Source: Myxococcota bacterium (lineage in GTDB: Bacteria; Myxococcota_A; UBA9042; PHBI01; JAWLBL01). Taken from it: a stretch of 22,489 nucleotides of DNA. This document shows, in pieces, positions 1,036 to 21,393 of the stretch (its first letter is position 1; each line of letters opens with the position of its first letter). The stretch spans positions 1 through 22,489 of the forward strand of contig JAWLBL010000046.1 in the NCBI GenBank assembly GCA_041687695.1, read 5' to 3'. A model generated the notes under the pieces. That model was not told the DNA's origin, searched no databases, and saw only the letters and a program-made list of their open reading frames with translations. The translations under genes were made by a program, and so were the position numbers.

Positions 1036-3242
<2,207 letters not shown>

Positions 3243-3245
3243 GCG

Positions 3246-4759
3246 TCAGTTCTTCTGCATCTGGGGGTCGATGGCGTCGCGGATGCCGTCGCCCAGGAAG
3301 TTCATCGAGAACAGCGTCGCCGCGAGGGCGAGGCCCGGCCACAGGATGAGCCAGGTCTGCTGCTCGAACTTGCTGGCGCCCTCGGTGATCATGTTGCCCC
3401 ACGACGGGTCGGGCGGCTGGACGCCGAGGCCGAGGAAGCTGAGGAAGGCCTCTTGCAGGATGACGGCGGGCACCAGCAGGGTCGAGTAGACGATGACCGG
3501 GCCGACCGTGTTGCGCATCAGGTGGCGGAAGATGATGCCCGTCTTGCTGACGCCGATGGCGCGCGCCGCCTCGACGAACTCGCGGGTCTTGAGGCTGATG
3601 ACCTGGCCGCGGACGACGCGGGCCATGGACAGCCATTGGATGGCGCCCAGGGCTATGAACAGGTTCACCGTGCTGCGGCCGACGATGACGATGAGCAGGA
3701 TGACGATGAACAGGTAGGGCAGGCCGTAGAGCACGTCGACGATGCGCATCATGATGTTGTCGACGCGGCCGCCGAGGAAGCCCGACACCGAGCCGTAGAT
3801 GACGCCGATGACGAAGCTGACGAAGGTGGCGAGCAGGCCGATGGAGATGGAGATGCGCGCGCCGTAGAAGATGCGCGTCAGCACGTCGCGGCCCTGGCCG
3901 TCGGTGCCCAGGATGAAGGTGTGCAGCTCGGGGGCGCCGGGGAACTCGGCGGCCGAGATGCGCAGATCGTTGTCGGCGTCGAAGTCGTCGAGGAGCTTCT
4001 GGCGCAGGGTCCAGTTGAAGCGCATGTAGCGGGTGCGCTGGGTGATCTCCCACTGGCTCAGGACGTGGTCGCCGTTGACGTCGAGGTTGCGGAAGGCGTC
4101 CGGGCCGGACAGGCCCAGGCCCTGCAGCTCGAGCGGCAGGTCGGCGTCGGTCTTGGGGAACTCCTTCCAGGTGAGATAGCCGTCGGGCTGCTTGCGGGTG
4201 GGGTCCGGGTCGTCGTCACCGCGCGCGACGTCGAAGTTGACCGTCAGCGAGATGAGGTGCTTGCCGGCGGCGTCGAGGGTCTCGAGCTCGGGGCAGCGCA
4301 GCGTGCCGGTCTTGGCCTGGATGAGCGCCTTGATGGGCATCTGGGCGTCGAGGGCGTCGAGGTCGGCCAGCACCTTGGTGTGCAGCGACGGCACCTCGCG
4401 CTCCATCCACTTCAGGCCCGGCAGGCCCAGGACCTTCTGCGGAAAGCGCTTGCAGGTCAGGTACCCGTCGCCGTCCAGGTCCATCGCCGCGAACCACGCC
4501 TTGTCGCCGTCGTAGGTCGGGTGGTCGTACGAGACGTCCTGCGTGCCCGGCGGCTGGAAGGCCAGGTGGTTGTGCTGCTCGTCGAGCGAGAAGTGCGTGC
4601 CGTACTTGGCGATGAGCGGCGCGGAGTAGCCCGCGACGGCCATGACGACGACCAGGCCCGCGCTGGCCAGGGCCAGCTTGTTCTTCTTGAGCCGCTTCCA
4701 GGCGTCGGCCCACAGGCTCTCGCCCTTGTCGACCACGATTTGCTTCTGCTTGTCGGCCA

Positions 4760-4760
<1 letters not shown>
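3246..4760 (-). CDS. oppC: Oligopeptide ABC transporter permease OppC with a ~207-aa EF-hand-containing insertion, 504 aa (start MADKQKQ)
   Basis: OppC N-terminal motif [41 protein letters not shown] loop [20 protein letters not shown]...[16 protein letters not shown]. The ATG overlaps the oppB stop (TGATG). Confidence 0.92.
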
Positions 4761-5913
<1,153 letters not shown>

Positions 5914-5914
<1 letters not shown>

Positions 5915-7887
5915 CAGCGGGCCCCCTTCTTCTGGCCGTCGGCGCCGCCGTCACTCGCCGGAGCCACCGCGGGCGCCTGCGCCGGCTGCGCGTCGCCCGA
6001 GCGCCCCGCCGTTCGATCGATGCGGATGTACTTGAGCAGGTGGTGGTCCTGGTACTGCGGCTCGTAGCCCTGCACGAAGGGCCGCAGCAGGTACGAGCGC
6101 GTGTAGTAGTAGAGCGGCACGACCGGCATGTCGCGGGCCAGCCCCTTCTCGGCCGCGCAGATGAGGACGTTGCGCTTGCGGGTGTCCCGCTCGTTCTGGA
6201 TGCGGTCGAGCAGCGCGTCGTACGCCGGGTTCTTGTAGGCCGGGTAGTTGTTGTCGCTGCCCGAGTGGAACACGTCGAGGAAGGTCATCGGGTCCGGGTA
6301 GTCGGCGCACCACGAGGTGCGGGCCGCCTGGAAGTCGCCCGACTGGGTCTGCTTGAGCAGCGACTTCCACTCCATGTTGTTGATGGCCGGCTCGGTCCCG
6401 AGGTTCTCCTTGAGGTTGCGCTGCATGAACTCGGCGATGAGGCGGTGGCTCTCGTAGGTGTTGTAGATGATGTCGAAGCTCAGCCCCACGCCGCGCGGGT
6501 AGCCGGCCGCCGCCAGGCGCTGCCGGGCGCCCATGGGGTCGAACTCCTCGCCCTTGGGCGAGACGTAGCCGAGCGTCCCCTCGTACATCGGCGGCAGCAG
6601 ACTGGTCGCCGGGATCTGGAACGACTTGAGCAGGTGCGAGGTCATCCCCGGCTTGTCGATGGCCTGGTTGACCGCGCGGCGCACCTGCGGGTTGTCGAAG
6701 GGCGGCCGGTCGGTGCGCAGCACGTAATAGTAGGTGCACATCTGCGCGTCGACGTGCAGATCGCCCCGCCCCGCCGTGATCCACCTCTCGAGCTTGCTCG
6801 ACGGCAGCGGCCGCGCCACGTGCGCCTGCCCCGCCTCGTAGAAGCGGACGTTCTTCTCCTCGTCGTCGCTCAGCCGGATCAGGCTCTTTTGCAGCGCGAC
6901 GTTGTCGGCGTCCCAGTACCGCGGGTTCTTCACCAGCTCGACCCGGTCGCGCGGCAGCCAGACCGTCATCTTGAACGGCCCGTTGACCACCATGTTCTCG
7001 GGCCGGACCCACTGCTTCCCGTGCGCCTCGATGGCGTGCCGCGGCACCGGCGCGTAGGCGATGTAGGTCGCCAGATCCAGGAAGTACGGCGTCGGCCGCT
7101 CGAGCGTGACCTCCAGCGTCCGGTCGTCCAGCGCCTTGACCGCGACCGTCTCGGGGTCGGTCGTCCGCCCCTCGTTGAAGGCCTTGCCGCCCTTGATGTA
7201 CCACAGCTGCTGCGCCGTCTTGCTGGCCGTCTCGGGCAGCAGGCCGCGGCGCCAGCTGTAGACGAAGTCGTGGGCGGTGTGCGGCGTGCCGTCGCTCCAG
7301 ACCAGGCCCTCGCGCAGGTGGAACGTGTAGGTCAGCCCGTCGGGCGACACCTCCCAGCGATCGGCGACGCCCGGGACCGGCCGCCCATTGCCGGCCGGGA
7401 TGGTTACCAGGCCCTCGAACATCTGGCTGGCGATGGCGTTGCCCGCCGACTCGCCGATGAGGTTCGGGTCCATGTACTCGGGGTCGCCTTCGATCCAGAC
7501 GAAGGTGTCGTCCTTGGGCGGCGGGCCGAAGTCGGGCGCCTTGTCGGTGCCCTGCCAGACCTTGGCCGGACGCGCCTTGGACGGGTCGAGCGGCGCCTCG
7601 GGCTGCAGCGCCTCGCACTGCTCGGCGAACTTGTCGAACTGCTCGGCCGTCGTGAACCCGGCCGCCCCCAGCTCGGTCGGCTCGGGCACCGCCAGCGGGT
7701 CGGCCTCCGCCTCCTCGGCCGTCGCGGCCTGCTCGAGCGAGGCCAGCAGCTTGCCCCGCTCCGCCTCGGGCACGACCACCAGCGGCACGACCTTGCCGTC
7801 GTCGGTCCGCTCGAAGCATCCGGCGAGGCCCGTCAGCCCGGGCGCCACCAGCAGCGCCAGCCCCAGGGCGATTCGTCGTCTCTCCAT
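5914..7887 (-). CDS. oppA: Oligopeptide ABC transporter substrate-binding lipoprotein OppA (SBP family 5), 657 aa
   Basis: Signal peptide with lipobox LAG-C. Family-5 signature PGVADRWEVSPDGLTYTFHLREGLVWSDG. VVNGPF, NPRYWD, CTYYY and WCADY motifs as in enterobacterial OppA. Confidence 0.93.
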
Positions 7888-8756: not shown

Positions 8757-10088
8757 TCAGAGCGGCCCGCGCCGCAGCGGCAGCGTCAGGCACCGCGGGC
8801 CGCCGCGCCCGCGCACCAGCTCGTGGCCCTGCAGCGCCACCGCGACCGGACGGTGGTCGGGACGCATGTACAGCGAGGCGTTGCGCACGAACTGCGGCGG
8901 CTCGACGATCTCGTACCCCGCGCGGTTCAGCTCGCGCAGGGTCACCTCGTTGCGGCCGTAGGTGATGATGACCCCGGGGGCCACCGCGAAGGCGTTGGCG
9001 CCGTCGGACCACTGCTCGCGCGCCTGGGTGATGGGGTCCTCGCCGCCGCACAGGATGGGCTCGAGGCGCAGGCCCACGTCCGCCAGGGCGGTGAGCAGGT
9101 TCGAGCCGACGACCCGCTCGGCGACGCCGTCGCCCTCGGGGGTCAGCTGGTAGACCCGCGCGCCCACCGAGCCCGGGTCGCGGAACAGCGGCGGGTAGAT
9201 GAGGCAGTGGTCGTGGTCTATCTGCGTGAACAGCGTGTCGATGTGCATCGCCGCGCGGGTGCGGGGCATCTCGCAGGCCAGCAGGACCTCGAAGCCGCGG
9301 GCGAACAGGTGACGCGCCAGGCGACGGGCGGCCGTCAGGGTCGTGCGCACGCCGATGCCGACCAGGGCGACGCGGTCGCTGAGGACCTGGATGTCGCCGG
9401 CCTCGAGGGTGACCGCGGGCTGCCCGGGGGCGCGCAGCGGGCCGTCGTGGGCGATGTCGATCTTGGGCGTGTCGCGAAACAGCGGGTGGTGCGTGAAGAC
9501 GGCGCGCGACAGGCGCATGTCGCGGCGGCGGGCCGGCTCGGCGGCGTGGGTGACGATGATGGCGTCGCCGGCGGCGGCGCCCAGATCGCGGGCGAACAGG
9601 GTGTTGGGGGCCGGCCAGCGCAGCAGGCGCCGCCGAGAGCGCGGCTCGCGGCCGCTCAGCAGGGCCTCGGCGAGGGCGGTCGGCTCGAGGCGCAGGAGCC
9701 CCGCGCGCGACGCGCGGAGCTGGTCGTCGGGGACGCCGTACAGCTCTTGCTCGAGGACCAGCACGTCCTCGATGACGTCGGCGCGGGCCTGGTCGTCGTA
9801 CAGGGTCCCGGCGAGGAGATCGCGGAAGGTGGCGTGGTTGGTGTCACCCACGACGGCGCGCAGGACCGCGGTCAGCTGGGCGTGCTCGGCCTGCATGGCG
9901 CTGAGCAGGACCAGGTCGTCGAAGAGCAGGTAGTCCTTGTTGGGGACGACGCCGCCGCCCGGCGCCGGGACGAAGCGCTCGAGGTTGTGGGGCAGCATGA
10001 ACTCGAACTCGATGCCCGGCGGGCTCGTGACGATGACCTCGAGCGGGGCGATCTCGCTGCGGTTCGAAATGCGGAGCGGAGCGGACAT
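8757..10088 (-). CDS. arcA: Arginine deiminase (amidinotransferase superfamily), 443 aa (start MSAPLRISNRSEI)
   Basis: SEI near the N-terminus, YLLFDD, PNTLFARD, LEAGD, MHIDT, REQWSDGAN, ELVRGRGGPRCLTLPL. Catalytic Cys, His, Glu and substrate-binding Asp residues are present. Confidence 0.88.
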   Translation of the reverse strand: MSAPLRISNRSEIAPLEVIVTSPPGIEFEFMLPHNLERFVPAPGGGVVPNKDYLLFDDLVLLSAMQAEHAQLTAVLRAVVGDTNHATFRDLLAGTLYDDQARADVIEDVLVLEQELYGVPDDQLRASRAGLLRLEPTALAEALLSGREPRSRRRLLRWPAPNTLFARDLGAAAGDAIIVTHAAEPARRRDMRLSRAVFTHHPLFRDTPKIDIAHDGPLRAPGQPAVTLEAGDIQVLSDRVALVGIGVRTTLTAARRLARHLFARGFEVLLACEMPRTRAAMHIDTLFTQIDHDHCLIYPPLFRDPGSVGARVYQLTPEGDGVAERVVGSNLLTALADVGLRLEPILCGGEDPITQAREQWSDGANAFAVAPGVIITYGRNEVTLRELNRAGYEIVEPPQFVRNASLYMRPDHRPVAVALQGHELVRGRGGPRCLTLPLRRGPL

Positions 10089-10096
10089 GGGCAGCT

Positions 10097-10480
10097 TCAG
10101 CCTGTGGGCGAGGGGGCGCGGACCAGGCGCGCGATCAGCGCGGGCAGGCGCTGCGGGGCGACCATCTTGGGGACGCCGTCGTCGGCGCCGGCCAGGATCA
10201 TGCGGTGGTTCATGATCGGGTCCGAGCTTATGGCCACGATGACCAGCTCGGAGGGCGCGTAGCGTTCGCGGAGGGTCGCGACGGCCTGCGCGCCGGTCAA
10301 GTGGTCGCCGCCCATGGCGTAGTCCATCAGGACCGCGGCGGGGCGCACGGCGGCCACGTCGGCGAGGGCGTCGTCGGCGTGGGGCCGGTAGTGGAGCTCC
10401 GCCGGCAGGGCGGCCAGGAAGTCGGGGTGACGGACGAGGTCGTCGTCGAAGACCAGGACGCGGGGTCGATGTGCGCTCAT
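10097..10480 (-). CDS. Single-domain response regulator (CheY-like receiver), 127 aa (start MSAHRPRVLVFDDD)
   Basis: Acidic pocket VLVFDDD, phosphoacceptor VLMDY, conserved Ser (VAISS), AGAD, conserved Lys (VPK). No output domain. Ends 8 nt before arcA. Confidence 0.85.
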   Translation of the reverse strand: MSAHRPRVLVFDDDLVRHPDFLAALPAELHYRPHADDALADVAAVRPAAVLMDYAMGGDHLTGAQAVATLRERYAPSELVIVAISSDPIMNHRMILAGADDGVPKMVAPQRLPALIARLVRAPSPTG

Positions 10481-10612
10481 GCGGCGAGAGTGACAGACGC
10501 CGAGGGCCGTGGATACCGGGGCCTCGCAGACGCGCGAAACTGTGGTAGGAAGTGGCCTCACTCCAAGCAGCGGGCCGGGCCGCGCGGGCCGGCGCCGCCA
10601 TCGAGGTGGCAC

Positions 10613-14216: not shown

Positions 14217-15599
14217 ATGTCACCCCGACGCGCCGCCCTCGCGGCGCTGGCCCTCATCGGCTGTGCGCCGGCCGGCTGCGCCACGCCCGCCGAGCGCGCC
14301 GCCCTGCGCGACCTCGACGCGCTCCCGCCCGTCCACGCCCCCGACGACCCCGCCGCCGCCCCCCCGGCCGCGCCCCCGACCAGCCTCGCCGATCTGCTGA
14401 CCCTGGCCGAGCAGCGCAGCCCCGCCCTGCGCGCCGTCCGCTGGCGCGCCCAGGCCGCCGCCGACACGCTGCCGACCGCCCGCAAGCTGCCCGAGCCCCA
14501 GCTGACCGCCCAGGTCATGCCCGGCGCGGCCGACGGCGAGGTCGACCTGATGGAGACGCAGCTGCAGGTCATGCAGAGGCTGCCCTGGCCCACCCGGCCG
14601 GGCCTGTCCGCCGACGTCGCCGCCGCCCAAGCCACCGCCGCCCGCCTGCGCTACGAGGCCGCCCGCCAGCGCCTGCGCGCCCAGGTGCGCCGCCCCTTCG
14701 CCGAGCTGGCCTTCCTCGACCGCACCGAGCGCCTGCTGCGCCTCGAGGAGCGCCTGGTCGCCCAGATCGAGGAGTCCGCCCGCGGCCGCGTGGTCGCCGG
14801 CCGCGCCGATCTGGGCGGCCTCGCCCGCCTGGCCGTGCGCCGCGCCGAGCTGCGCGAGCAGGCCGACGCCCTCGAGGACCGCCGCCGGGGCCTACGCGCC
14901 CAGCTCCGCGCCGCCGCCGGGCTGCCCCCCAACACCCCGCTGCCCACGCCCGCCCTCGAGCCCACCCCCGAGGCGCTGCCCACCTTCGAGGCCCTGGCCG
15001 CGCTCGTAACCGACAACCCCGAGCTGTCGGTCGCCCTGGCCGAGCACGCCGCCGCCCGCGCCGCCGTCGCCCGCGCCGAGGCCGCCGGCCTGCCCGACTT
15101 CACCGTCGGCGCCGGCTTCATGAACCGCGCCGGCATGGGCCACGCCCCCGACATGAACGGCGCCATGCTCATGCTGGGCCTCACCCTGCCCGTCTGGCGC
15201 GACGCCTACGCCGCCGAAGCCGACGCCGCCCGCGCCCGCGCCCACGCCGCCCACGCCGACCGCGACCAGGCCCTGCTCGAGGCCCAGGCCGCCCTGGGCG
15301 CCCTGCTCGCCCGCTGGGACGAGGCCACCCGCCGCGCCCGCGTCGTCGAGCGCGAGCTGGCCCCCGGCACCCGCTCCGCCCTCGAGGCGGCCCTGTCCGG
15401 CCTCGCCGCCGACCGCGCCAGCCTGGTCGACGTGCTCGAGCTCGAGCAGCAGCTCCTGCGCTTCGAGACCCAGCGCGCCCGCGCCGAGGCCGACCGCGTG
15501 CAGGTCCTGGCCGAGCTCGAGGCCCTGCTCGGCCGGACGCTCGCCGCCGTTCACGCCGCCCCCGCCCCCCACGCGCAGCCCGCCCCGGAGGCCCCATGA
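14217..15599 (+). CDS. TolC/OEP-family outer-membrane channel lipoprotein of the heavy-metal RND system, 460 aa
   Basis: Lipobox-like LIG-C/PAG-C, two OEP repeats (AEQRSPAL...LPEPQL and NPEL...LPDFTVG...LGLTLPVW), SLVDVLE, LEALLG. GGAG Shine-Dalgarno. Stop overlaps the next ATG. Confidence 0.88.
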   Translation: MSPRRAALAALALIGCAPAGCATPAERAALRDLDALPPVHAPDDPAAAPPAAPPTSLADLLTLAEQRSPALRAVRWRAQAAADTLPTARKLPEPQLTAQVMPGAADGEVDLMETQLQVMQRLPWPTRPGLSADVAAAQATAARLRYEAARQRLRAQVRRPFAELAFLDRTERLLRLEERLVAQIEESARGRVVAGRADLGGLARLAVRRAELREQADALEDRRRGLRAQLRAAAGLPPNTPLPTPALEPTPEALPTFEALAALVTDNPELSVALAEHAAARAAVARAEAAGLPDFTVGAGFMNRAGMGHAPDMNGAMLMLGLTLPVWRDAYAAEADAARARAHAAHADRDQALLEAQAALGALLARWDEATRRARVVERELAPGTRSALEAALSGLAADRASLVDVLELEQQLLRFETQRARAEADRVQVLAELEALLGRTLAAVHAAPAPHAQPAPEAP

Positions 15600-17793
15600 A
15601 CGCCGCCACCCTCTCGCGCGCCCTGCGCCCCGCCGCCGCCCTGGCCGCCATCCTCCTCGCCGCCGCCTTCGGCGCCTTCATCGCCGCCCCGCCCGCCGAT
15701 CCGGCCCCGGCCCCCACGGCCACCGTGGCCGCCGACGGCGACGAGCACGCCGGCCACGACCACGCCACCGAAGACGCCACCGTCTGGACCTGCTCGATGT
15801 GCCCGCAGGTGCGCCTGTCCGAGCCCGGCAAGTGCCCCATCTGCGGCATGGACCTCATCCCGGTGCAGGCCGGCGCTTCCGGCGGCGCCCAGGTCACCCT
15901 CTCGCCCGAGGCCGCCGCCCTCGCCGGCCTGCGCACCGTCCCGGTCGAGCGCCGCCCCGCCTCGCTGCGCGTCCCCCTGGTCGGCAAGGTCGCCTGGGAC
16001 GACACCCGCGTCGCCCGCATCACCGCCTGGTTCGGCGGCCGCATCGACCGCATGTTCGTCGACTACGCCGGCACCCGCGTCGCCAAGGGCGACCACCTCT
16101 TCGAGCTCTACTCCCCCGAGCTGCTCGTCGCCCAGCAGGAGCTGCTGCAGGCCGCCCGCGACGCCAAGCGCCTGGCCGGCAGCGAGCTGATGCGCGCCTC
16201 CATCGAGGAGACCCTGGCCGCCGCCCGCGACAAGCTGCGCCTGTGGGGCCTGCAGGCCTGGCAGGTCAAGCAGATCCAGGACCGCGGCCGCCCCATGGAG
16301 CGCGTCACCATCTACGCCCCGCTGGGCGGCGTGGTCACCGACAAGGCCGCCCTGCAGGGCAGCTGGGTGTCGACCGGCCAGCCCATCTACACCATCGCCG
16401 ATCTCTCCAAGGTCTGGATCGTCCTCGACGTCCCCGAGTCCGAGGTCCAGTGGATCCGCTACGGCACCCCGCTCACCTTCGAGGTCGCCGCCTGGCCCGG
16501 CCGCCGCTACCGCGCCGAGGTCTCCTTCGTCAGCCCGGCCATGGACCCGCGCACCCGCACGGTCCAGGTCCGCGCCACCGTCGACAACGCCGACCAGTCC
16601 CTCAAGCCCGAGATGTTCGTCCGCGCCACCGTCCACGCCACCCTCGGCGGCGACGGCCACGTCGGCCACGCCCACCACGACCTCGGCGGCCGCTACATCT
16701 GCCCCATGCACCCCGAGGTCACCGCCGACGGCCCCGACCGCTGCACCGTCTGCGGCATGAAGCTGGTCCCCGCCGGTGAGCACTGGCTGGTCAGCGCCTC
16801 CCTCGGCCGGCCCCCGGGCGAGGCCGGCGACCCGCTGCTCATCCCGGCCACCGCCCCGCTGCTGACCGGCCGCCGCGCCGTCGTCTTCGTCGAGGTCCAG
16901 GGCGCCGACCAGCCCACCTATCTCCTGCGCGAGGTCACCCTGGGCCCGCGCGCCGGCGACGCCTACGTCGTGCTCGACGGCCTGATGGAGGGCGAGCGCG
17001 TGGTCGCCGAGGGCGCCTTCAAGCTCGACAGCGCCCTGCAGATCCGCGGCGACCGCTCGGCCATGTCCCTCGGCATCGACGGCGACGGCGCCCAGCCCGC
17101 CGCCTCGCCCCTCGAGGCCCTCGCCGACGCCCTGGCCCACCCCGACGACCCCGACGCCCTGCTCCAGGCCGTCCGCGCCGCCGGCCTCGACGCCCACCTC
17201 CTGCGCGGCCCGGCCGCCTGGCTCGCCCGCGCCACCGAACCGCGCGAGCGCGCCGCCGCCCAGGCCCTGCTCGCCCGCGCCGCCGCCCGCGTCCCCAAGC
17301 TCGCCGTCCCCGAGCCCCCGCCCCCGCCGCGCCGCGAGGCCGGCTTCCCCGCCGCCCTCGACCGCCTGGTCCAGGACGCCGTGGTGGTCGCCGCCGCCCT
17401 CGCCGCCGACGACCCGGCCGCCGCCAAGGCCGCCGCCGCCCCGCTCGCCCCCGCCGTCGCCCAGCTGCTGGCCGCCGCCGGCGAGCCCCTCGACCCCGCC
17501 CTGGCCCAGGCCGCCCAGGCCCTCGGCGCCGGCCCCGCCGAGCTGCCCGCCCAGCGCGCCGCCTTCGGCCGCCTCTCCGCCGCCCTGGTCCCGCTCATCG
17601 ACCTCGAGCGCCCCGCCGGCGTCCCCTGGCAGATCACCTTCTGCCCCATGGTCGACGGCGACCAGGGCGCCTACTGGCTGCAGGCCCCGGGCGACGTGGC
17701 CAACCCCTACTACGGCGCCGAGATGCTGCGCTGCGGCAACGCCGTCGAGATCGGCCCCGCCGAGGCCCCCCCCGCCCCGGGAGGCGCCGCGAA

Positions 17794-17797
<4 letters not shown>
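15596..17797 (+). CDS. cusB: CusB-like periplasmic adaptor (MFP) with two heavy-metal-binding domains and a C-terminal DUF3347-like domain, 733 aa
   Basis: WTCSMCP...GKCPICGMDL; GRIDRMFVDYAG...LYSPELLVAQQELL; IYAPLGGVV; IADLSKVWI; DPRTRTVQVR; LKPEMFV; YICPMHP...CTVCGMKL; GLMEGERVV; FCPM...WLQ...NPYYGAEMLRCG. Confidence 0.88.

Positions 17798-21393
<3,596 letters not shown>

Follow-up and report, generated by a model that had tools for sequence, protein, structure and literature searches.

An EF-hand insertion, predicted to be periplasmic, in the OppC permease subunit of an oligopeptide-type importer from Myxococcota

A stretch of 22,489 nt from a Myxococcota bacterium (GCA_041687695.1, contig JAWLBL010000046.1, positions 1 to 22,489 of the forward strand; G+C content approximately 70%), referred to here as the window, contains on its minus strand an oppABCDF operon, in which the permease subunit OppC carries 207 additional amino acids (aa) between its first and second transmembrane segments (TM1 and TM2). 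This insertion has the character of an EF-hand domain, is predicted to be located in the periplasm and, judging from its residues, is likely to bind Ca2+. We propose, with a rough probability of 0.4 and mainly by analogy with other importers, that Ca2+ is a permanently bound structural cofactor of the insertion, which would form a rigid periplasmic platform and so help the permease to capture the lipid-anchored binding protein OppA or to position it above the membrane subunits.

The oppC gene and the parts of its product that frame the insertion are as follows.

3246..4760, minus strand: oppC, permease with the EF-hand insertion, 504 aa
4548..4718, minus strand: OppC_N domain with TM1, aa 15-71 (PF12911, 47.3 bits against a cut-off of 23.9)
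4545-4559, minus strand: FQPPG motif, aa 68-72
3924..4544, minus strand: EF-hand insertion, predicted periplasmic, aa 73-279, 207 aa
3885..3923, minus strand: conserved OppC motif, aa 280-292, which leads into TM2
3255..3806, minus strand: BPD_transp_1 membrane core, aa 319-502 (PF00528, 111.6 bits, 4.8e-32)

The extra stretch in the TM1-TM2 loop is a true insertion. In the alignment to solved structures, residues 21-63 of E. coli OppC correspond to residues 12-54 of the query and residues 73-300 to residues 274-500, and the segment between these two blocks amounts to approximately 219 residues in the window OppC, as compared with approximately 9 in E. coli OppC. Likewise, the spacing from TM1 to the GTDxxGRD motif is 18 residues in three insert-less paralogues from the same class, in comparison with 124-243 residues in the EF-hand-bearing relatives. 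An earlier examination of the letters of this DNA by themselves, referred to below as the sequence-only reading, had described a large insert between FQPPG and the motif at aa 280-292; set against the approximately 9 residues of E. coli and the 18 of the paralogues, these 207 aa are real, and translation of the minus strand placed every motif quoted in that reading at the coordinates it had given.

Outside the insertion, OppC is a recognizable member of its family. The membrane part matched E. coli OppC (8z21_B) in a Foldseek search with an E-value of 1.3e-15, 51% identity over 218 columns and a TMt of 0.72. The best NCBIfam matches were the oligopeptide permeases Opp4C, Opp3C and OppC, all below their equivalog cut-offs; the OppC equivalog PRK15406 scored 280.7 bits against a cut-off of 433 and matched only over aa 276-500, so by the NCBI rule the protein is a family member and not an equivalog. 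The N-terminus is rich in K/R (8 K/R and 4 D/E among residues 1-29) and is predicted to be cytoplasmic. The periplasmic side of the insertion is predicted from the positive-inside rule, from the topology of solved OppC and from a conserved pair of cysteines, C103 and C156, whose invariance, as expected for a disulfide in the oxidizing periplasm, fits this location.

The EF-hand elements of the insertion, EF1 to EF4, are arranged as follows.

4452..4481, minus strand: EF1 loop positions 1-10, D94 to C103, with the entering helix at aa 88-93; EF-hand_6 and EF-hand_1 above cut-off
4296..4451, minus strand: variable helical sub-insert inside the EF1 loop, aa 104-155, modeled as three helices
4287..4295, minus strand: C156-P157-E158, the second staple cysteine and the putative position-12 Glu of EF1, near which the exiting helix (aa 157-170) begins
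4158..4235, minus strand: EF2, aa 176-201, consisting of F-D177, a 15-residue intrusion and D193-G-Y-L-T-W-K-E200-F-P
4224-4235, minus strand: FDVA, aa 176-179, the start of EF2
4158-4187, minus strand: second part of EF2, aa 192-201
4047..4082, minus strand: EF3 canonical loop, aa 227-238, with a helix on either side
3945..3980, minus strand: EF4 loop, aa 261-272, with Leu at position 6 and Glu at position 12 followed by FPG, without an exiting helix

Pfam analysis identified EF-hand_6 (31.6 bits, cut-off 25) and EF-hand_1 (27.3 bits, cut-off 25.4) at aa 88-106, and precomputed matches to PF13405, PF13499 or PF00036 were present in most homologues. The combination that the sequence-only reading had expected from HMMER, namely OppC_N, EF-hand matches and BPD_transp_1, was thus obtained in full. 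Among the Pfam families matched by OppC at E <= 1, neither dockerin (PF00404) nor Excalibur was present, with the qualification that the HMMER filters drop most weak matches. The EF-hand match is not a chance occurrence: a relaxed EF-loop pattern occurred in the 44,974 residues of the six-frame translation of the window only at the two canonical loops, and a six-frame scan of the 8-Mb genome with EF-hand_7 gave oppC as its single match, with an E-value of 0.003 and a score below the cut-off. The residues demanded of a 12-residue loop, namely an oxygen ligand at each of positions 1, 3, 5 and 12 together with a hydrophobic side chain at position 8, are found directly in EF3 and EF4. EF1 has them only if E158, which lies beyond the sub-insert, is taken as position 12, an assignment supported by the uninterrupted loop DLDSDGQLRCPE of a relative.

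Conservation of the ligands was evaluated in homologues obtained by searching 5.8 billion clusters with the insert region. This search, of a kind that the sequence-only reading had suggested, yielded 36 other proteins of 296-528 aa with the same insert, all of which carry OppC_N and are named only as permeases of Myxococcota or "Deltaproteobacteria" metagenome-assembled genomes (MAGs). An alignment (A1) was made of 35 of the 37 proteins, leaving out P0021, which is a fragment, and P0023. In EF1, D94, D/N96, G99, C103, C156 and E158 were each conserved in 35/35, and position 98 was D in 34 proteins and N in one. In EF2, D177 was conserved in 33/35, D193 in 34/35 and E200 in 35/35. D227, D/N229, D/N231 and E238 of EF3, as well as D261, D/N263, D265 and E272 of EF4, were each present in all 35. 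Ligand conservation was similar in a set of 30 genomes, and C103 and C156 were invariant in both sets (35/35 clusters and 30/30 genomes). The inserts are only 35-58% identical in sequence, yet the ligands of EF1, EF3 and EF4 vary little or not at all, and the sequence-only reading thereby passes its own check that the acidic ligands be conserved in homologues. Conservation is also strong at positions that are not ligands, such as the motif HPTYDGD (aa 80-86) and an invariant R244. The most constant element is EF4, which adjoins an E-[FY]-x-G-x-P stretch before TM2.

Structure models were confident. The AlphaFold2 model of full-length OppC, built with 35 homologues, had a predicted local distance difference test score (pLDDT) of 85.8, with values of 82-95 for the blocks of the insert, and the model of the insert alone (aa 66-292, alignment of 30 genomes) had a pLDDT of 91.8 and a predicted template modeling score (pTM) of 0.81. 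Helices were modeled on both flanks of loops 1 and 3, and loops 2 and 4 had an entering helix only. In structure searches, the nearest structures of the insert were mostly EF-hand pairs, with modest Z-scores of up to 6.0. Foldseek returned nothing for the insert at E <= 1e-3, the best E-value being 0.065, with calmodulin-type and other four-EF-hand chains at template modeling (TM) scores of 0.10-0.32, and no usable match was obtained from the ESM Atlas. The structural matches fell into two classes of model range, approximately 18-213, which covers loops 1 and 4, and approximately 98-180, which covers loops 2 and 3. These ranges suggest that the loops pair in a nested fashion, with an outer EF1-EF4 pair enclosing an inner EF2-EF3 pair, in which case the two ends of the insert would meet at the membrane.

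The two interrupted loops can be understood by comparison with relatives. In the genome L062, the insert is minimal, approximately 105 aa; the 12 residues of its first loop run without a break as DLDSDGQLRCPE, and the EF4 loop comes next. In the genome L064, there are four canonical loops and no cysteine; the loops are DRNGDGQLDDAD, DADRDGRVTRAE, DRDGDGALTTAE and DGDGDGVLERAE, of which DADRDGRVTRAE occupies the place of EF2. Because relatives carry the uninterrupted version, loop 1 of the window protein is an EF loop broken behind its tenth position. The break is filled by a helical module of 52 residues (aa 104-155) with C103 and C156 at its two ends, and P157-E158 would represent the original positions 11 and 12, with E158 as the presumed twelfth-position ligand. 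A disulfide between C103 and C156 most likely closes the neck of this sub-insert. EF2, for its part, is an EF loop with an intrusion of 12-15 residues after position 1, and its Ca2+ site is doubtful because the position-3 ligand is no longer recognizable.

The sub-insert is absent from relatives of approximately 450 aa. In a tree of the membrane part, forms without the Cys-Cys module nest within forms that carry the module, and two of these placements are strongly supported, which indicates that the module was lost or gained repeatedly; the backbone of this tree is open, long branches lead to the short forms, and support for separating the three insert-less paralogues is only 68/67. The EF1-loop site looks like an insertion hot spot. 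In a separate observation, a Cys-rich stretch was found in place of the EF1-loop module at L030:1462-2181 (G294), where the whole loop contains 10 Cys.

The other genes of the operon are listed below.

5914..7887, minus strand: oppA, substrate-binding lipoprotein, 657 aa; Pfam SBP_bac_5 1.1e-88
4760..5914, minus strand: oppB, permease, 384 aa; BPD_transp_1 3.9e-42, E. coli OppB match 9.3e-72
5528..5767, minus strand: insert within OppB, predicted periplasmic, aa approximately 50-129, with approximately 71 extra residues after TM1; lipoyl- or barrel-sandwich-like
2127..3242, minus strand: oppD, ATPase, 371 aa; ABC_tran and oligo_HPY
1036..2130, minus strand: oppF, ATPase, 364 aa; ABC_tran and oligo_HPY, with the start mapped

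The stop of oppB and the start of oppC have one base in common. OppC is accompanied by an OppA-type binding protein, by OppB and by OppD and OppF ATPases with an oligo_HPY tail, and the five genes encode orthodox Opp proteins apart from the inserts. In related loci, oppA, oppB and oppC are neighbors in 18 of 20, and oppD and oppF come next in 11 of the 20. As a side observation, no oppD or oppF match was found beside oppABC within the fetched stretches of L040-L048, which represent family f6 and some other relatives from the class. The system has the look of the housekeeping peptide importer rather than of an unusual extra copy, because oppC is the sole OppC_N gene of this 99%-complete, 8-Mb genome.

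The solved relatives nearest to OppA were the Salmonella and E. coli OppA proteins (2.9e-97), along with MppA, and the best NCBIfam matches of OppA and OppB were OppA and OppB, below the equivalog cut-offs. Peptides are the likely cargo, since OppA is nearest to OppA and MppA, and the membrane part of OppC is 51% identical to that of E. coli OppC. OppA has a lipobox, LAGC, at aa 21-24, followed by a tether of approximately 100 aa and then by the SBP_bac_5 core. Within the tether, aa 77-96 (window 7600-7659, minus strand) form a conserved amphipathic helix with one cysteine (C91), which is common to the window and five loci of the same order; distant relatives have instead a motif resembling 'AQLLAE..P' after the lipobox. 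The tether helix is a candidate partner for the EF-hand domain.

OppB also carries an insertion. In the alignment, residues 1-49 and 59-306 of E. coli OppB correspond to residues 1-49 and 130-383 of the query. The OppB insert has no Cys and gave a weak Biotin_lipoyl match (E 0.01, below the cut-off). The OppB and OppC inserts are found together in 25 of 29 related loci, and in L010, L020 and L029 the OppC insert is present and no OppB insert is seen in the alignment.

The architecture is clade-restricted and rare overall, and it is common within its class. Of the 401 genomes of the phylum searched for the insert, 32 matched; besides the genome of the window, the 31 were from the same order (10, out of 11 in that order) or from the same class (21), and the architecture was not found in the other Myxococcota classes sampled among these 401 genomes. 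With profile A2, matches were obtained in 63 of 107 genomes of the class, in 44 of 68 high-quality genomes and in 43 of 58 genera, although some of these match the outer pair only. Against longer proteins, A2 gave 56 matches, 55 of them permeases of 431-563 aa. An exhaustive phmmer search of 1.84 billion representatives gave 24 matches at E <= 1e-3 and 9 at E <= 1e-10; the strong ones fall in the OppC loop position and the remainder are generic EF-hand proteins.

Searches for related loci gave none with the single protein as query and 11 with a nine-row alignment (A3). Ten of these are from Myxococcota, Deltaproteobacteria or Myxococcales MAGs or from a metagenome chromosome. The eleventh, a weak Chloroflexaceae match to an EF-hand pair, is the sole named record outside Myxococcota, "Deltaproteobacteria" and "uncultured Myxococcales" MAGs and the metagenome chromosome. 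Free-standing copies of the domain were sought in two ways. In a word-index search of proteins of 113-363 aa, 0 of 269 candidates scored, a weak negative, since this search missed P0021, a 296-aa fragment with 53-55% identity to the insert that was found by both the cluster search and phmmer. In the exhaustive phmmer search, no convincing free-standing domain was seen, the strong matches lying at approximately 64-290 of OppC-like proteins or fragments; the short matches were not each inspected. The sequence-only reading knew of no characterization of this architecture, in agreement with a full-text literature search in which no publication was found to report EF-hands within an ABC (ATP-binding cassette) permease, whether of the Opp type or of any other, the primary OppABCD and OppBCDF cryo-EM papers being outside its coverage. 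Approximately 55 such proteins are already in public databases, named only as permeases.

How the domain might act can be considered in the light of these results. In the mechanism that we propose, the four-loop domain in the TM1-TM2 loop of OppC would stay filled with Ca2+, the Ca2+-held insert would constitute a rigid platform on the periplasmic face of the permease, and this platform would help to capture or position the tethered OppA over the permease. Outside the cytoplasm, Ca2+ concentrations normally exceed by far what EF-hands need for binding, and sites that are filled all the time would imply a structural rather than a switch-like role. A docking function is supported by the precedents of MalF P2 with MalE and of the EF-hand-like sites of the binding proteins FusA and AlgQ2. 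A bolder version, which we regard as rather unlikely, is that in at least one class of Myxococcota the EF-hand module of the permease loop grips the lipid-tethered OppA, perhaps via the Cys-bearing helix at aa 77-96 of its tether, so that OppA would be held captive instead of diffusing; if true, this would be a bacterial counterpart, within a transporter, of calmodulin-target or dockerin-cohesin recognition.

The complex prediction for the OppA core (aa 124-657, without the tether) and the insert scored 0.00 in both runs, which were made without controls, and has no weight for or against binding. Several results weigh against the proposed platform, in which the contact of the insert with OppA is suggested by analogy. 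The OppA tether helix is confined to the closest order, whereas the insert is class-wide. In family f8 (L067, L068 and L073), the inserts are short, with a canonical EF4 and an EF1 that is degenerate or lacks Cys, indicating that not every site is indispensable. As for the fold itself, EF-hand_7 over the EF3-EF4 pair (aa 221-273) scored 28.6 bits, slightly below the cut-off of 30; EF2 departs from the loop definition at position 3; EF4 has Leu instead of Gly at position 6; and EF2 and EF4 are modeled without an exiting helix, because each runs into E-F-P. Complete helix-loop-helix units are modeled for EF1 and EF3. The wider claim of a four-EF-hand module in the first extracytoplasmic loop holds, with support from Pfam, the confident model, the EF-hand-pair structures and the conserved acidic ligands, and with a doubtful Ca2+ site at EF2, whose position-3 ligand is not recognizable.

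The sequence-only reading had also pictured a calcium-sensing or calcium-stabilized importer. Either is plausible, and the present data do not tell a sensor from a structural role. As a sensor, the domain would respond to periplasmic or external Ca2+ and gate import, its Ca2+-free form blocking the docking of OppA or locking the permease, by analogy with the mitochondrial ATP-Mg/Pi and aspartate/glutamate carriers, which have regulatory domains of the EF-hand type; we consider such a switch distinctly less probable than the platform. A similarly low likelihood is given to the possibility that the Ca2+-stabilized domain has no role toward OppA and is a structural cap, packing on the OppB insert or the periplasmic face and protecting, stabilizing or spacing the transporter. 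The co-occurrence of the OppB insert in 25 of 29 loci, the placement of both inserts after TM1 of their own subunits and the variable EF1 sub-insert, repeatedly lost or gained as for a solvent-exposed decoration, all agree with a cap, but the conserved non-ligand surface motifs (HPTYDGD and R244) suggest a specific partner, and the three loci with an OppC insert and no aligned OppB insert (L010, L020 and L029) also speak against a cap.

It is improbable that the domain binds another metal, such as a lanthanide or transition metal, or metal-peptide complexes, and that the transporter is tied to metal uptake. Ligand sets composed only of oxygen favor Ca2+, the residues at loop position 2 are Leu, Val and Ala and not the Pro of lanmodulin-type loops, and OppA, OppB and OppC all score best against true oligopeptide systems; the Cus genes of the window are on the opposite strand, past three unrelated genes. 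Still less credible is a relic domain that kept its fold while metal binding was lost or became irrelevant. The disrupted EF2, and an EF1 that is degenerate in some relatives, would fit a relic, but the ligands of EF1, EF3 and EF4 have stayed invariant or nearly so across inserts that are otherwise strongly diverged.

In the window annotation, the neighboring genes, for a short-chain dehydrogenase/reductase (SDR), an arginine-deiminase-like protein, an SLT transglycosylase and Cus-type efflux, had no evident link to the opp operon. The Cus-type tripartite efflux operon (window 14217-21393, plus strand) encodes an OEP outer-membrane factor, an HlyD_D23 adaptor with two heavy-metal-binding HMBD motifs and an AcrB-family pump. 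The arginine-deiminase-family protein (window 8757-10601, minus strand; 614 aa) has its Pfam domain from aa 224 onward, and the approximately 220 aa upstream are without a Pfam domain, provided that the start of the open reading frame is correct.

Although type I ABC importers belong to the textbook machines, folded periplasmic accessory domains on their permeases are rare. The importer described here would represent a second kind, in which OppC has a metal-loop domain and OppB a small beta domain. Both belong to what is apparently the main peptide importer of a class of uncultured Myxococcota, and the arrangement is conserved across that class. Should the domain dock OppA, or gate transport by Ca2+, it would amount to a new coupling of a binding protein, or of an ionic signal, to ABC import. 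A clear bacterial example of nested-insertion EF-hand evolution would be gained as well, with a pair within a pair, a helical module in a Ca2+ loop and a probable disulfide. The isolated insert is small, soluble-looking and confidently modeled, so that the key experiments would be easy even though the organisms are uncultured.

The E. coli OppBCDF (8z21) and DppBCDF (8z1v) and the M. tuberculosis OppABCD (8j5q) systems share with the window system the OppC_N and BPD_transp_1 domains, the GTDxxGRD motif and the oppABCDF operon. The OppC described here differs by the addition of approximately 207 residues between TM1 and TM2, E. coli OppC having approximately 9 residues there. Among EF-hand proteins, EfhP of P. 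aeruginosa, CaBP of Caulobacter and lanmodulin have their EF-hand loops outside the cytoplasm, as is predicted here, and are described as free or singly anchored small proteins, none of which is inside a transporter subunit. Pro at position 2 of the EF loop is typical of lanmodulin; the corresponding residues here are L95, V228 and A262, and the insert was not assigned to the lanmodulin-type lanthanide EF-hands. Pairing is sequential in MCFD2 and other two-EF-hand adaptors, calmodulin, calcineurin B and SCaMC, in contrast to the apparently nested pairing of the insert. Compared with four-EF-hand proteins, the insert has its loop 1 split by a 52-residue helical module stapled by two Cys and its loop 2 expanded, and the arrangement as a whole is unmatched (Foldseek TM scores of 0.10-0.32).

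Functional precedents come from other ABC importers. The P2 loop of MalF in MalFGK2 is likewise a large folded periplasmic domain in a permease subunit; it comprises residues 91-276 (approximately 185 aa) and binds MalE with a dissociation constant (Kd) of 7-22 uM, and a review calls it unique to the maltose system (PMC6906923). MalF P2 has an immunoglobulin-like fold, lies between TM3 and TM4 of MalF and has no metal sites, whereas the insert has a helical EF-hand fold and lies between TM1 and TM2 of OppC. With this position, its helical fold and its EF-hand matches, the insert does not belong to the MalF-P2-type domains, and the resemblance is a functional analogy only. In FusA and AlgQ2, an EF-hand-like Ca2+ site is described as lying at the interface of binding protein and permease and as needed for translocation and not for ligand binding (PMC5222590). 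In these class G binding proteins (FusA, AlgQ1 and AlgQ2), a single Ca2+ loop is carried by the binding protein, whereas in the Myxococcota importer a four-loop domain is carried by the permease.

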